Under the pieces are notes generated by a model. That model was not told the origin of the DNA and did not search any database. It saw only the letters and a list, made by a program, of their open reading frames with translations. DNA of 64,000 bases, from the NCBI GenBank assembly GCA_964646765.1, contig CAZYIA010000002.1:12760-76759 (forward strand), in the 5' to 3' direction. The stretch comes from an uncultured Candidatus Saccharibacteria bacterium (lineage in GTDB: Bacteria > Patescibacteriota > Minisyncoccia > Phycocordibacterales > UBA9973). Of this stretch, positions 279 through 15,770 are shown piece by piece; position 1 is the first letter of the stretch, and every line of letters begins with the position of its first letter. The position numbers and the translations under genes were made by a program.

Positions 279-1901
279 CTACTGTAGTTTTAGTTGCCAC
301 AGAATATTATCGGTTTTGTTAACAAAGTATAGAGTGGAGTTATCCAGTGCAAGCTTTAGAGACGTTGCATCGATTCGTTGCCCTACCTCAGTACTTGGAT
401 CAGCTAGGGTTCGCATTGGTAAAATTCCAGAAATGTTGATTGCTACTAACGTATCTCCAAAGAAGACTTTGCCTTGGTACCAAGCATCTGGAATTGGGAG
501 ATTTGTTGGAATAAAGTTTGGTACCCCACAGTAGACAGTAGTGCTATCCGTGCTCCAAACACACTTTTCTGGAAGGGTTAGGACACCGAGGTCTTTCATT
601 GTTTGAGTAGCTACATCAAAAATTCCAAGCGCAGGACCATTTTCAGTATTGCGACTAAAGAGAACACTTTTCATGTCTGGAGAAGTAAGTGTGGTAAGCC
701 CTATAACTGGCCCAACAACCTTTTTAGGTGTTCCTGTTGGAATAGTAGGATTTATGCTAAAAGCATATCCTGGAGCATATGCAGTCGCTTTTGTGGTAAG
801 TACAACTGCTTTACTATTTGGCCAGCTAGAGAGCCAACCCATAAATGGTGAAGTAAATACCTGTTTTCGGTCCGTGCCATCAGGGTTTCCTGAGATACCG
901 ATAGTACCTCCAGCAAATTGAGCAAGAAAGAACAATCGTTTACCATCCGGAGAGATACTCATATCAAAAATGTTTGGTTCAAGAAATATTCCCGTCAGTG
1001 TTCCTGGGCTAGCAGTTGCTCCCCAGCTTTCACGTGGGAGGGTTGCAAGGTAGCTATCAATAGTTTGATTATCATCACGCAGGTAGCGAAGAATAACCTG
1101 ACTTCCATTATTAAGGAAGAACGCCTCAGCAATTCGCGGGATAGTTGTGTTGGTAAGTCTCTTTCGTTCCAGGGTGTCAGTATACGCGTCTTGGATATTT
1201 CCGTTACCTTTTTCAACAAAGCGAATAACAGATCGTTTAGTAGTTTTTGCTGGAACCCCTCGGAGCATGCAGTCCCAAGGAGCATTTAGCTTTTTTCGAG
1301 TGAGAGTATCGAGTGTCCCGCTTCCTTTTGTTCGGTTGAGTGGAGCTAGTATATCAGCAGAAAATTTTTCTTGAAATTTAATAAGAGCAGCTTTTGTTTT
1401 TGCTGAAAATGTTTTTTCTTCCTTTCCAGGAGAGCCGATACCCGTTACTGCTACTTGTGTGTCAGGGCAAGCGTTTAAGCTTTTTTCGAGTTCGGTTACT
1501 TCAGCATCAGTTGACCCAATAGAGAGTGTCTTAGTAAATGTATAGGTTGGGGTGATTGTCTTTACTTCATCAGTAGAAAGAGCTGCTGGGTCGATAGGAA
1601 CATATTTTTCAACTAAAGTGAATCCTGCTATTGGGCTATCCCATACTTCCTCTAATCGGGTACTTTTTTGTGGTTGTACTTGTGGTTCTCCTCCTGTAGT
1701 ACTAGGAGGAGTTTTGGTCGTTGTTGTCGGAGGTTGATTCGTTTGCGCCGGTTTTCCAAAAGGAAAAAAGTTTCTACCTGTCTGTTCCCCTCCCCCCGTT
1801 GTTGTTGTTCGTTGCTGCAGCACAAACCAACCAAAGAACCCGATGATCAATACCACCAGAATACCGATGAATATATAGAATGTTCTTTGGTTAATTTTCA
1901 T
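279..1901 (-). CDS. Membrane-anchored TolB-like (PD40/WD40-like beta-propeller) protein with a Thr/Pro-rich linker
   Basis: N-terminal TM helix (FYIFIGILVVLIIGFFGWFVL), a T/P/G-rich linker, then PD40-like repeats (ISPDGKRLFFLAQ..., NPDGTDRKQVF). It is the last gene of the long minus operon. Confidence 0.5.
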   Translation of the reverse strand: MKINQRTFYIFIGILVVLIIGFFGWFVLQQRTTTTGGGEQTGRNFFPFGKPAQTNQPPTTTTKTPPSTTGGEPQVQPQKSTRLEEVWDSPIAGFTLVEKYVPIDPAALSTDEVKTITPTYTFTKTLSIGSTDAEVTELEKSLNACPDTQVAVTGIGSPGKEEKTFSAKTKAALIKFQEKFSADILAPLNRTKGSGTLDTLTRKKLNAPWDCMLRGVPAKTTKRSVIRFVEKGNGNIQDAYTDTLERKRLTNTTIPRIAEAFFLNNGSQVILRYLRDDNQTIDSYLATLPRESWGATASPGTLTGIFLEPNIFDMSISPDGKRLFFLAQFAGGTIGISGNPDGTDRKQVFTSPFMGWLSSWPNSKAVVLTTKATAYAPGYAFSINPTIPTGTPKKVVGPVIGLTTLTSPDMKSVLFSRNTENGPALGIFDVATQTMKDLGVLTLPEKCVWSTDSTTVYCGVPNFIPTNLPIPDAWYQGKVFFGDTLVAINISGILPMRTLADPSTEVGQRIDATSLKLALDNSTLYFVNKTDNILWQLKLQ

Positions 1902-1907
1902 ATACCA

Positions 1908-3314
1908 CTAGTGTACACATGATCCCTGGCAAACATGAAAGTGATTTCCTTCATCAACAAACATCCAGTTACCAATAGAATAACCCCAAGCTCCTGTTCG
2001 ACTATCACTGGTGACACATTGAGCTCGACTTTGGTTGGCCTGAACAGGCCAACCTGGGATGCAAGCTCGATGCTGTTTATTTGCATCAGTTATAACGTAT
2101 GAAACCAGAACGGTGTCCTCGGCGTCAAAGATTGGTTTTGCGATGTCGTGAGTTTTGTGTTTCCAGCACTCAGTTCCTCCTGTTATGTTGAGGGCGCACG
2201 TCGGGCATGATTGTCGAATTGTATCGGAAAGATTACGGAAGTCAGTGATTTGAGTATTAGTATATTTTGCCACACTTGTACAAGCAGCTTCTTGTCCAAA
2301 GGTTGAACAATTTTGACCAACAACAGATATTTTGTAACCATCTTGAAGGGCTGTCCTTTCAGTAGCATCGTTGTACCACGCATGACCAGCCTGGTTTACG
2401 GTAAAACCACCACAAGCTCGGATATCGTTAGTCGTGGTTGTAGCCTGCTCAGCATTTTCAATAAACTGAGGTTGAATTGAGATAACAGCAGAATCAATAC
2501 TAAAAACAATTGCAGAAAGTTGCGGATTTATTGTGTTTAACAAAAGAACCGAGCCAAGAGCAATAACTAGTCCTAGAATTGAGCGGGTGATCATCTCCTT
2601 CCCCCCTTCTTTTCGACTAAAAGCATCGGTGGTCATATATTGAACACCACCTAACACAATAGTAATAACTGCGAGAACACCAACTATTCCAATTATTATT
2701 TTTATGAGGACATTTACGTATTTACCAAATGAGTCATCAGTAAAAATTTTATCGAACTGTTGCCCCGTTGTACCAATTGGTAGTGGTTCAAGAAGACAAT
2801 ATTCCCCCGGGCCTTCAGTACACGTGCTTGAGCCGCCAGGATTAATATCAACATGGTTACTTCCGTCAGTATTTGTATGAGTCCCAGTTGTTATATGTCC
2901 CTGACCGATAATAGTTCCGTCCTGTCTAGTAACAAACCAATCGTAGTAAGTATTTTCCTGGATGATGTTCCCTGAAGCGGCAAAACCCAGAGTTCCCGTT
3001 CGTGGCCAACTACTCGCTGCTGGTGGAAATTCTAAATCGGATTGCAAGGTCTTAGTGTGACCTACTGGAGTTTTTGCTTGCCCCAATTTTTGTACTGAGA
3101 GTGTATATGGGGTTGTATCGTTGGCTTCAGCCTGAGTATCAACATGCACAGTAAAAGTTACCGTAAACCGATCATTAGATACGTCAATCTCAGGTGAATT
3201 TCCAAAGCTTACCGCCGCGAGTGCTGCGTATGGGGTACTGACAATAAGGAACACCATAAGAGTGAGCATTGAAACACAGGTTCTCAAAAAAGTTTTTATA
3301 GAAAAAAGTTTCAT
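1908..3314 (-). CDS. Secreted protein containing a VirB2/TrbC-like pilin hairpin (two TM helices separated by a short loop) plus a Cys-rich C-terminal domain
   Basis: Signal peptide (MKLFSIKTFLRTCVSMLTLMVFLIVSTPYAALA). Central motif: TM1 IIIGIVGVLAVITIVLGGVQYM, loop TTDAFSRKEGGKEMITRS, TM2 ILGLVIALGSVLLLNTI, which is the typical VirB2/TrbC topology. The C-terminal ~200 aa carry many Cys (CGGF, CSTFGQEAAC, CPTC, CQGSC). Confidence 0.4.
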   Translation of the reverse strand: MKLFSIKTFLRTCVSMLTLMVFLIVSTPYAALAAVSFGNSPEIDVSNDRFTVTFTVHVDTQAEANDTTPYTLSVQKLGQAKTPVGHTKTLQSDLEFPPAASSWPRTGTLGFAASGNIIQENTYYDWFVTRQDGTIIGQGHITTGTHTNTDGSNHVDINPGGSSTCTEGPGEYCLLEPLPIGTTGQQFDKIFTDDSFGKYVNVLIKIIIGIVGVLAVITIVLGGVQYMTTDAFSRKEGGKEMITRSILGLVIALGSVLLLNTINPQLSAIVFSIDSAVISIQPQFIENAEQATTTTNDIRACGGFTVNQAGHAWYNDATERTALQDGYKISVVGQNCSTFGQEAACTSVAKYTNTQITDFRNLSDTIRQSCPTCALNITGGTECWKHKTHDIAKPIFDAEDTVLVSYVITDANKQHRACIPGWPVQANQSRAQCVTSDSRTGAWGYSIGNWMFVDEGNHFHVCQGSCVH

Positions 3315-15352: not shown

Positions 15353-15368
15353 ACGGGAGTTTTATGAT

Positions 15369-15770
15369 TTATTGTTTTGAAACACCGTACATAGTGATGG
15401 TGTTCATTTCTAGAGTTACTTCGATCGGTGGGTAGCTATCATAGATACAAGTAACTTCTGTCGAAGATGGTGTGTACAAACCAAGAATCTGAACATTTTC
15501 ACGAGCCGAGCTGCTTGTTTTAGACTTTGTTCCGTACGGAATAACGTATGATGTTGGGCTATTTCCTTTTGGCTGAATTAAGAGATCATCACCCGGTACC
15601 TCACAGTCAAAACCAGCATCTTCAAGTGATTCAATCTCCGGAGCTGACATTTGGGTAATTTTTCCACCAAATGGTCGTCCATAGGCTTGTGAGTACTGTG
15701 GAGCTGAAAAGACACATAGAAACACAAGACAAATACCAGCGGCTAAAAGTTTTGATCCATGGTCACTCAT
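15369..15770 (-). CDS. Small secreted hypothetical protein
   Basis: Signal peptide MSDHGSKLLAAGICLVFLCVFSAPQYSQAYG. It is the first small gene downstream of rsmA in the long minus operon. Confidence 0.5.
   Translation of the reverse strand: MSDHGSKLLAAGICLVFLCVFSAPQYSQAYGRPFGGKITQMSAPEIESLEDAGFDCEVPGDDLLIQPKGNSPTSYVIPYGTKSKTSSSARENVQILGLYTPSSTEVTCIYDSYPPIEVTLEMNTITMYGVSKQ

Follow-up and report, generated by a model that had tools for sequence, protein, structure and literature searches.

The 64,000-nucleotide stretch of DNA analysed here (the window), from contig CAZYIA010000002.1 of an uncultured Candidatus Saccharibacteria bacterium, carries at 279-15770 on the minus strand a block of eleven co-directional open reading frames (ORFs). 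An initial annotation had taken this block for a monoderm-type type IV secretion system (T4SS) interleaved with large exported proteins of no recognisable family. The question raised by the locus is which kind of T4SS this is, and whether it moves plasmids between cells or serves another purpose. We consider it probable that the block is a chromosomal T4SS of the Patescibacteria clade, derived from the mating-pair-formation class MPF_FATA and arranged in the gene order of Paceibacteria and Nomurabacteria, which works as a non-conjugative machine for host contact or penetration. Gene clusters of this kind were already described between 2023 and 2025 for the ultra-small Patescibacteria, for which Candidate Phyla Radiation (CPR) is another name, and the window holds a further member.

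The secretion core and its chromosomal site

In transcription order the ORFs encode proteins of 133, 313, 947, 1111, 250, 142, 218, 611, 332, 468 and 540 amino acids (aa). They are spaced by 6-51 nucleotides (nt), and direct reading of the sequence showed a 4-nt ATGA overlap at 14411-14414 that joins the stop of the 313-aa gene with the start of the 947-aa gene; the tight, co-directional packing claimed by the initial annotation was confirmed by this reading and by the ORF coordinates. A terminator scan revealed no intergenic terminator-like site on the minus strand within the block, and promoter-like sites were scored at chance level (37 observed vs. 34 expected). A signal or anchor helix was predicted at the N-terminus of seven of the eleven proteins. 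The block encodes one protein with a VirB2-type pilin hairpin and six other exported or anchored proteins.

The 611-aa protein (4358..6193; this and all other genes of the block are on the minus strand) is the C-terminal motor part of a VirB4-family ATPase. It matched the NCBIfam family NF045971, "VirB4-like conjugal transfer ATPase, CD1110 family", with 391.7 bits (curated cutoff 325) over profile positions 182-734 of 752, and Pfam P-loop_TraG at 6.8e-27, and it has a Walker A motif (GSGKS, at aa 263-270) and a Walker B motif (DEAW). A grouping of the ATPase with FtsK/HerA was also checked; the curated VirB4 equivalog cutoff was passed and no such grouping was seen. When genome collections were scanned with this VirB4 at least 584 relatives were obtained, and all counts of loci given here refer to the best 80.

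The N-terminal domain of VirB4 is encoded as a separate TrsD-like polypeptide of 218 aa (6244..6900). In VirB4 profiles this protein matched N-terminal positions only, and it also matched TrsD/TraD (NCBIfam, below curated cutoffs). Its precomputed Pfam family is PF26593 (TraC-like), and the 218- and 611-aa proteins side by side cover the VirB4 profile. TrsD and VirB4 are two ORFs in 80/80 loci (tblastn), and the split is therefore not a frameshift artefact; a frameshifted VirB4 pseudogene was rejected on this ground. Next in the core is a PrgI/VirB3-like small inner-membrane protein of 142 aa (6921..7349), which matched PF12666 with 39.2 bits (gathering score 27), has two transmembrane (TM) helices at aa 25-61 and was found in 75 of the 80 loci. 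Both the split VirB4 and the PrgI/VirB3-like protein had been proposed from the sequence and are borne out by these profiles.

The best 80 VirB4 relatives are all metagenome-assembled genomes of Patescibacteria, with 75-86% identity. They go under the names Nomurabacteria, Paceibacterota/Paceibacteria, Minisyncoccia or Parcubacteria RAAC4_OD1_1, and many of them are listed generically as "uncultured Candidatus Saccharibacteria". The nearest VirB4 proteins outside the CPR, on plasmids of Firmicutes and Actinobacteria, reach at most 36% identity. Wherever the contig extends far enough, tblastn of the best 80 loci showed one shared order, (uvrD)-ksgA-313-947-1111-250-prgI-trsD-virB4-332-pilin-540, with the family-less genes given by protein length. 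This order recurs in about 80 species-level genomes, far beyond chance. Since the family-less proteins are syntenic in the relatives along with the rest of the cassette, they are conserved members of it and not incidental neighbours. Conservation differs strongly along the block, with a median identity of 78% for VirB4, 61% for TrsD, 43% for PrgI, 40% for the pilin protein (25% median query coverage), 38% for the 540-aa protein, 35% for the 332-aa protein (96% coverage), 33% for the 1111-aa protein (38% median query coverage) and about 28% for the 947-, 313- and 250-aa proteins.

Directly upstream of the block, and co-directional with it, are ksgA/rsmA (15803-16591, minus strand; Pfam RrnaAD, 8e-47) and uvrD/pcrA (16728-18650, minus strand; Pfam UvrD-helicase, 6.5e-88). 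This flank (15803-18650) has the same neighbours in related loci, and its housekeeping genes mark the cassette as chromosomal. On the other side, as taken from a public contig carrying an identical 540-aa protein, the block converges on jag-yidC-rnpA-rpmH, followed by dnaA-dnaN, and the cassette therefore abuts the replication origin. The GC content of the block (0.416-0.447) lies inside the range of the remainder of the window (0.36-0.45); with this composition and with the housekeeping synteny kept, a horizontally acquired island was rejected. Pfam scans of the larger ORFs detected no relaxase, VirD4/TcpA-type coupling protein or VirB11 in the 64-kb window, and no Walker A motif was present in the large family-less ORFs that were checked, in agreement with what had first been noted. 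Neither was a relaxase or coupling ATPase found in the 10 kb beyond the window.

These features correspond closely to the published CPR systems. Quinonero-Coronel 2025 (PMC12102498) reported VirB4 in 2,417 of 3,035 Patescibacteria genomes. Almost all of these VirB4 proteins belong to a single clade within MPF_FATA, with TrsD, PrgI, VirB6 and PF18895/VirB2-like pilins encoded near virB4, with relaxases almost absent, and with ksgA, rnpA, rpmH and dnaA as the neighbourhood. In the window we find the same: a VirB4 that passes the CD1110 cutoff and whose best 80 relatives are all from Patescibacteria, with TrsD, PrgI/VirB3 and a VirB2-like pilin encoded near virB4, no relaxase or coupling protein in the cluster, and a site near ksgA, rnpA, rpmH and dnaA. 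The window's VirB4 is assigned to the clade by its nearest relatives. Table S3 of that study lists RAAC4_OD1_1 (GCA_000505065.1) with VirB2 two genes after virB4. This genome is among our loci (L018), and it has a VirB4 of the same clade, a separate TrsD, PrgI, no relaxase, the same neighbourhood and the same gene order as the window, with a PF18895 pilin two genes after virB4. We see no essential difference between the systems of that study and the window, which is another member; the main text of PMC12102498 is silent on the size of Paceibacteria pilins, on a fusion to enzyme modules and on the conserved 332-, 540-, 947-, 313- and 250-aa partners. Taken together, the profile matches and the literature (PMC10633639, PMC12102498, PMC12857230) uphold the monoderm-type T4SS that was originally proposed.

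Two groups of conjugative systems stand closest outside the CPR. In the Mollicutes integrative and conjugative elements (ICEs; Mbov_0395, Mbov_0396/MMCAP2_0566, Mbov_0397) the trio shared with the window is a pilin-like hairpin protein, a polytopic membrane protein and VirB4. The NCBIfam family VirB4_plasma (Mollicutes) gave 276 bits for the window ATPase and E=4e-10 for TrsD, and all matches to Mollicutes ICE families were below the equivalog cutoffs. The Mollicutes transfer genes sit on mobile ICEs and serve conjugation, whereas the cluster in the window is fixed at the origin without mobility genes. The CD1110-type T4SSs of Firmicutes (MPF_FATA; C. difficile conjugative transposons (CTn), C. 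perfringens/botulinum plasmids) represent the best-scoring curated VirB4 family for the window and share with it a monoderm architecture without VirB7/9/10; a TrsD-type protein is common to the pGO1 subclass and the window (PMC12102498). However, the VirB4 identity is only about 30-35%, and VirB2-type pilins are reportedly missing from these systems, which are described as operating with a relaxase and a type IV coupling protein (T4CP) (PMC12102498). No counterpart of the window's exported accessory proteins was detected in them, and the pair of relaxase and coupling ATPase that characterises conjugative MPF_FATA systems (pCF10/pIP501/Tn916/CTn type) is absent from the window and the adjoining 10 kb.

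The pilin protein and its terminal modules

The pilin hairpin lies within a fusion protein of 468 aa (1908..3314, minus strand). T4SS_pilin (PF18895) matched aa 198-254 with 27.2 bits, above the gathering score of 26.6, which supports the VirB2-like hairpin seen in the first inspection, and the NCBIfam ICE_MMCAP2_0565 pilin-like family matched at E=5.5e-4. According to the AlphaFold2 (AF2) model, the N-terminal part consists of a signal peptide and a variable Ig-like beta domain (aa ~40-190). It is followed by the VirB2-type hairpin block (aa ~165-266, nt 2517-2822) with helices at aa 196-228 and 232-262, a disordered linker and a compact alpha/beta C-domain with a predicted local distance difference test score (pLDDT) of 80-90. 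Three stand-alone pilins of 121-123 aa were retrieved with the pilin block, at 47-49% identity, which supports its homology to pilins. A signal peptide, and after it a hydrophobic hairpin of two helices whose loop is short and basic, are as expected of VirB2/TrbC-type pilins. The size is not, as mature VirB2 has about 70-120 aa and the protein in the window has ~150 extra residues before the hairpin and ~200 after it. The loop between the helices is Lys/Arg-rich and the cysteines of the C-domain are conserved, which is consistent with a topology where both termini are extracytoplasmic. In public gene calls a later ATG is taken as the start, giving 453 aa as compared to 468 aa for the longest ORF (window 3270-3314); the start of the gene and the length of the signal peptide are uncertain.

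A local hidden Markov model (HMM) of the hairpin block detected it in 73/73 complete orthologues; the length of orthologues varies between 170 and 774 aa (median 413). The pilin-block gene is unique in the window, and in 71 of the 73 loci it is the sole such gene within 10 kb of virB4. Two loci, L009 (15456-16523, 356 aa) and L011 (15982-17868, 629 aa), have another long gene with a pilin block just after the 540-aa gene, and duplication of the modular pilin therefore occurs. When 45 orthologues were searched with Pfam, T4SS_pilin was found in 41 and TrbC (PF04956) in two. The C-terminal families were VanY (9), YkuD (4), NlpC/P60 (4), Peptidase_M15_4 (2) and SLT, SLT_2, Amidase_5 and Extensin-like_C (1 each), and the N-terminal domains include TIG and FN3-like domains. 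The same type of fusion is visible in independent public gene calls, where PF18895 is combined with PF03734, PF02557 or PF01551 (Peptidase_M23).

In most orthologues (65/73) the C-terminal extension measures 157 aa or more. BLAST clustering of the C-modules from the 68 orthologues with an extension of at least 60 aa gave 17 mutually unrelated clusters, among them the window type (15 members), VanY (13), NlpC/P60-like (10) and YkuD (5). The window type is thus the commonest among the 73 orthologues examined, and profile-profile comparison (hhalign) found it unrelated to each of the other 16 clusters. The N-terminal parts fell into 38 clusters. The nearest neighbour by VirB4 shares the C-terminal class in 19/68 cases, as compared to a mean of 7.7 after shuffling, and there are pairs of genomes with 94-95% identical VirB4 that carry different C-module classes. 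By these comparisons, exchange of the C-modules is much more rapid than divergence of the core. A class-specific (immunity) gene was not found 3' of the pilin gene, whose immediate neighbour in the loci is the conserved 540-aa gene. Neither the main text of PMC12102498 nor full-text literature searches gave a description of a pilin-enzyme fusion, and the fusion of the sole nearby pilin gene to an exchangeable cell-wall-enzyme module is accordingly a feature that we did not find described.

The C-domain of the window protein (aa ~305-468, nt 1911-2402, minus strand; delimited by alignments and AF2) is rich in Cys and His. Invariant residues are E382, H386, H389, D397, H458, H460 and three cysteines, in the pattern GG-T-E-C-W-x-H-x2-H ... 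D ... H-x-H. The spacing H389-x7-D397 and H458-x-H460 is like that of a zinc site and resembles LAS/DD-peptidase sites. Among 1.84 billion cluster representatives 80 relatives of the domain were found (E <=0.001), nearly always in C-terminal position, and 65 of these 80 also carry T4SS_pilin. Pfam searches with 19 trimmed sequences gave no family and PDB profile searches no sequence relative; hhalign against the VanY-type modules gave probabilities of 1.5-4.8%, and fold searches with the whole 468-aa model returned only Ig-like and helical-hairpin matches. We propose the domain as a candidate for a new pilin-associated enzyme family, and its position and conserved residues suggest that it may be a wall-active metallohydrolase.

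Polytopic and exported partners of the core, and the rest of the window

The largest protein of the block (1111 aa, 8190..11525, minus strand) is polytopic. TM prediction and AF2 give a signal or anchor helix, then an FN3-like ectodomain rich in beta structure (aa ~34-220) and a helical TM bundle (aa ~250-620) modelled with a pLDDT of about 90, and after these a long helical region and a tail rich in Gly and His, with at least 7 hydrophobic helices in all. Invariant in the family are W316, R320, D321, N324, N362-F363-S364, D373, N376, R474, P486 and W509. The tail, GGGHGGGGHDDHGGGDHGGHH, is made up of the last ~20 codons (window 8190-8260); the family consensus likewise finishes G/H-rich (GGGxGHH), which suggests a metal-binding tail.

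The description of this protein as VirB6/PrgH-like held only in part. TrbL/VirB6 (PF04610) did not match the protein or 40 orthologues, and is absent from the precomputed Pfam annotation of 120 homologues. A search of PDB sequences with the family profile gave no VirB6, Foldseek of the full model against the PDB gave only weak FN3 matches, and tblastn against plasmids gave nothing. Some orthologues, however, matched ICE membrane-protein families of NCBIfam: the MMCAP2_0566 conjugal transfer protein in 8/41 (best 6e-9), the Mbov_0396 ICE TM protein in 4/41 (best 7e-8) and the CD3337/EF1877 mobilome membrane protein in 2/41. For the window protein itself the best support is E=0.018 to an ICE membrane-protein family. 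Judging from consecutive locus tags, the Mollicutes families presumably adjoin the pilin-like protein and VirB4 in their ICEs. The 1111-aa protein is a candidate for a VirB6-equivalent polytopic channel protein, with no match to the TrbL/VirB6 family at the sequence level. A VirB8-like (NTF2-fold) protein gave no sequence match in the block; monoderm VirB8 proteins are recognised mainly by fold, and a VirB8 that is undetected by sequence agrees with the literature (PMC12102498). Candidates for this role are the small anchored proteins of 313, 133 and 332 aa.

The best conserved of the remaining proteins in terms of coverage is the secreted 332-aa protein (3321..4319, minus strand), which has a signal or anchor helix and is present in 76/80 loci. 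It contains a repeat unit of about 100 residues in up to three copies, since hhalign of the family on itself aligned aa 68-211 with aa 171-317 (probability 95.6%, E=1e-8), and it has no relative in Pfam or among PDB sequences. The last gene of the block, present in 70/80 loci, encodes a membrane-anchored protein of 540 aa (279..1901, minus strand) with a Thr/Pro-rich linker, a peptidoglycan-binding-like segment and a C-terminal beta-propeller-like (TolB/PD40-like) domain. PG_binding_1 and PD40 match weakly in the window protein and were found in 7/46 and 3/46 orthologues, respectively; TolB was the sole PDB profile match of the family, with a non-significant E=0.1.

At the other end of the block, the first gene after ksgA encodes a small secreted protein of 133 aa (15369..15770, minus strand) with one N-terminal hydrophobic helix and no Pfam family; it is poorly conserved, and tblastn found it in 2/80 loci. 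The 313-aa protein (14411..15352, minus strand) is membrane-anchored by a TM helix at aa 11-29, carries calcium-binding thrombospondin-type-3 (TSP3) repeats at aa ~58-101 (CglD stretch, E=6e-7; Pfam TSP3_bac weak, below threshold) and is helical in its C-terminal part. Its gene is syntenic in the 32 loci whose flank extends that far.

The 947-aa protein (11571..14414, minus strand), syntenic in 40 loci, is an N-terminally anchored surface protein. In it the family alignment delimits a conserved globular N-part (aa ~130-290 and ~390-450), and there are further a low-complexity linker rich in G, S and N and a C-terminal region. Invariant residues are T140, G153, P187, W235, N247, N248, G280, C287, C393, P401, G402 and G446. 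It has no Pfam or NCBIfam family, none was consistent across 38 orthologues, and in PDB profile searches the C-terminal region weakly matched coiled-coil proteins (E 0.1-0.9). Between the 1111-aa gene and prgI lies the gene for a 250-aa protein (7386..8138, minus strand), predicted to be cytoplasmic as no TM helix was found; its N-terminal domain is helical and its tail is rich in Pro. No Pfam or NCBIfam family matched it, and it occupies the same position in 55/80 loci at about 28% identity.

Outside the block, three Lys/Glu-rich soluble proteins (456, 649 and 1199 aa) are encoded at 19975-26876 on the minus strand, just upstream of the uvrD-ksgA-T4SS block, in a region of strong AT skew (about -0.2). 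Two of the three have an FtsK gamma (winged-helix, DNA-binding) domain only, with no FtsK motor, Walker A motif or TM helix. As a hidden coupling ATPase the FtsK-gamma proteins were rejected, being without Walker A and motor domain. The 10-kb flanks of the 80 related loci contained none of the three. A protein with two LysM domains and Peptidase_M23 is encoded about 11 kb away from the block (27139-28308, plus strand); such M23/LysM domains are found on some CPR VirB1-like proteins (PMC12102498), and this protein may serve either the T4SS or cell division.

Further away, two paralogous family-less proteins of 593 aa (48458-50239, plus strand) and 575 aa (61459-63186, plus strand) have in common a Cys-rich, zinc-ribbon-like motif at the N-terminus, CxxC...FCPxCRxQRR. 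Three TrmB-type regulator genes are located at 47582-48355, 55459-56223 and 59649-60398, and either paralogue has one of them at a distance of no more than about 1.1 kb; a PaaX-like gene is found at 63320-63952. An ORF of the CCA-adding/poly(A) polymerase family (51897-53426, with a TTG start at 53426) overlaps tRNA-Gly(GCC) at 53385-53456, and the true start of this gene is probably further downstream.

Function of the cassette

The only functional data for a homologous cluster come from Southlakia epibionticum, where it is essential for epibiotic growth (Wang 2023, PMC10633639). The essential set there comprises VirB4, a TrsD-like protein, PrgI, a large membrane protein, pilins, and lysozyme and DD-peptidase proteins encoded just downstream of virB4. 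The Southlakia cluster (strain ML1, SEML1_0004-0019; PMC10633639) resembles the window in being dnaA-adjacent, in having PF18895 pilins and no relaxase or coupling protein, and in its order of large polytopic protein(s), PrgI, TrsD-like protein and VirB4, followed by exported proteins, which in Southlakia are cell-wall enzymes and Ig-like proteins. It differs in its pilins, of which a divergent array encodes six short ones (about 104-186 aa), and in that the hydrolases are proteins of their own, namely lysozyme x2 plus Cys proteinase, and a 1113-aa protein with a terminal Hedgehog/DD-peptidase domain, which is encoded in the gene just after virB4. An NTF2-like (VirB8-like) protein and two polytopic proteins are likewise present in Southlakia, whereas the window has one long pilin with a fused enzyme-like module and a single polytopic protein, and no VirB8-like protein was detected in it; the window in turn adds the TSP3, the 947-aa and the peptidoglycan-binding/propeller proteins.

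By analogy with these relatives, the cassette most likely functions as a non-conjugative host-contact or penetration machine. We envisage that the complex of VirB4, TrsD, PrgI and the polytopic protein would form a membrane machine which pulls the pilin hairpin out of the membrane and assembles an extracellular tube or stalk for contact with the host cell of the episymbiont. Both termini of the pilin would then face outward, bearing the variable Ig-like domain and the variable enzyme domain, the latter a predicted peptidoglycan hydrolase in many orthologues. These modules could bind and locally open a cell wall, either that of the host or the cell's own, while the peptidoglycan-binding/propeller, triple-repeat, TSP3 and fibrous proteins may form or anchor the part that spans the wall. 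Such a machine would serve attachment to or penetration of the host and the exchange of proteins or host material, not plasmid transfer. The earlier suggestion that the block is probably not a conjugative module, and that this fits an episymbiotic lifestyle with a reduced genome, is supported by the HMM results and by the literature (PMC10633639, PMC12102498, PMC12857230). A 2026 preprint (10.64898/2026.06.21.733656) describes tubular structures, possibly T4SS pili, which penetrate the host envelope, and proposes uptake of host RNA.

Several observations weigh against a host-contact machine built in this way. The ~150-200 extra residues at each end of the pilin may block polymerisation of the VirB2 kind, and the fusion could instead be a membrane-anchored hydrolase or be processed. 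The C-domain in the window is not a recognised hydrolase by Pfam, PDB or comparison with VanY-type modules, the 1111-aa protein is no more than a candidate for VirB6, with no match to that family in Pfam or in PDB searches by sequence and by model, and a VirB8-like protein was not detected by sequence. The search for a relaxase and coupling protein covered 64 kb plus 10 kb, and either could sit elsewhere in the genome; VirD4 homologues are far from virB4 in most CPR genomes (PMC12102498). Finally, the data on essentiality come from Saccharimonadia, in which the cluster differs by its short pilin arrays and separate hydrolase genes (PMC10633639).

For the pilin step alone, two readings have to be weighed. 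It is possible, though we put it forward tentatively, that the protein is an "armed pilin", with a hypervariable Ig-like N-module and an exchangeable enzyme C-module (at least 17 clusters) on a VirB2 hairpin, so that the T4SS would display host-wall-cutting enzymes on the outside of the cell and the modules would set the host range. Gram-positive T4SSs need a membrane-anchored multidomain peptidoglycan hydrolase, and it can be argued from this requirement that the protein is a VirB1-type hydrolase of the cell's own wall, where the pilin-derived hairpin merely serves as a membrane anchor, like PrgK or TraG. A mature protein 3-5 times larger than any known VirB2 fits this alternative, as does the lack of a class-specific immunity gene after the pilin gene, and any peptidoglycan-cleaving activity might suffice, which would explain a neutral exchange of modules. 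VirB1 matches are in addition unusually frequent beside virB4 in Paceibacteria (PMC12102498). Close relatives, however, are expected to have the same wall chemistry and yet carry chemically different enzymes (DD-carboxypeptidase, LD-transpeptidase fold, NlpC/P60 endopeptidase and lytic transglycosylase), a range more typical of target-driven diversification. That the N-terminal Ig/FN3/TIG-like modules are hypervariable also argues against a mere own-wall hydrolase, and so does the fact that the gene is nearly always the only one with a pilin block near virB4, in a system whose pilins are essential in Southlakia (PMC10633639). The own-wall hydrolase is to us a doubtful but possible reading of the pilin protein.

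For the system as a whole, uptake of DNA is an unlikely alternative, in which the T4SS, like Helicobacter ComB or archaeal Ced, would import host DNA or other nucleic acids as a source of nucleotides. The P-loop region of VirB4 does match CedB weakly (E=2.8e-10), although this match involves ~70 residues of the generic ATPase core (39.5 bits vs. a cutoff of 700), and no ComB- or Ced-specific component was found. In favour of uptake one can cite that the T4SS of ABY1-class CPR co-localises with comF/recG/radA (PMC12102498), and that the 2026 preprint suggests host RNA uptake via the penetrating tubular structures. The window itself contains comM, for a Mg-chelatase-like competence protein (28355-29890, minus strand), and a polynucleotide phosphorylase (PNPase) gene (31352-33505, minus strand). 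The preprint with the RNA-feeding model for CPR includes a PNPase phylogeny beside VirB4; the proximity of comM and PNPase to the T4SS may be coincidental. On the other hand, a 2025 review (PMC12857230) reports that deletion of comEC in Southlakia abolishes competence, which is credited to type IV pili, and leaves viability unaffected, whereas the T4SS is essential. Since viability is intact without comEC, the essentiality of the T4SS is not exerted via an interaction with ComEC.

A mating-pair-formation module left by an integrated conjugative element or plasmid, transferring DNA to other cells, is very improbable: its nearest non-CPR relatives (of VirB4, PrgI, TrsD and the polytopic protein) are indeed from conjugative elements of Firmicutes and Mollicutes, relaxases of unknown type remain conceivable (PMC12102498) and a tyrosine recombinase gene is present at 40726-41643, but that recombinase is 25 kb off among housekeeping genes and XerC/D-like in appearance, neither a relaxase nor a T4CP nor an oriT-type feature was found in the window, housekeeping genes enclose the cassette at the replication origin, its GC is within the range of the window, it is syntenic in about 80 species with a VirB4 conserved far beyond usual mobile-element genes, and in the published VirB4 tree transfer between classes is nearly absent (PMC12102498).

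We therefore return to the host-contact or penetration machine as the preferred reading of the block. The window and its 80 relatives define a strongly syntenic Paceibacteria cassette of 11-12 genes and show which hypothetical exported proteins accompany the core. The pilin hairpin in this cassette appears as a carrier for rapidly exchanged extracellular modules, many of which are peptidoglycan hydrolases, and the comparison brought to light a pilin-associated, metalloenzyme-like domain family that has no Pfam model. The cluster adds one genome to a CPR-wide system that is essential in the single species tested (PMC10633639). If the modules act on host walls, they would be testable candidates for breaching of the host and for determinants of host range, and would provide a link to the images of tubular structures.

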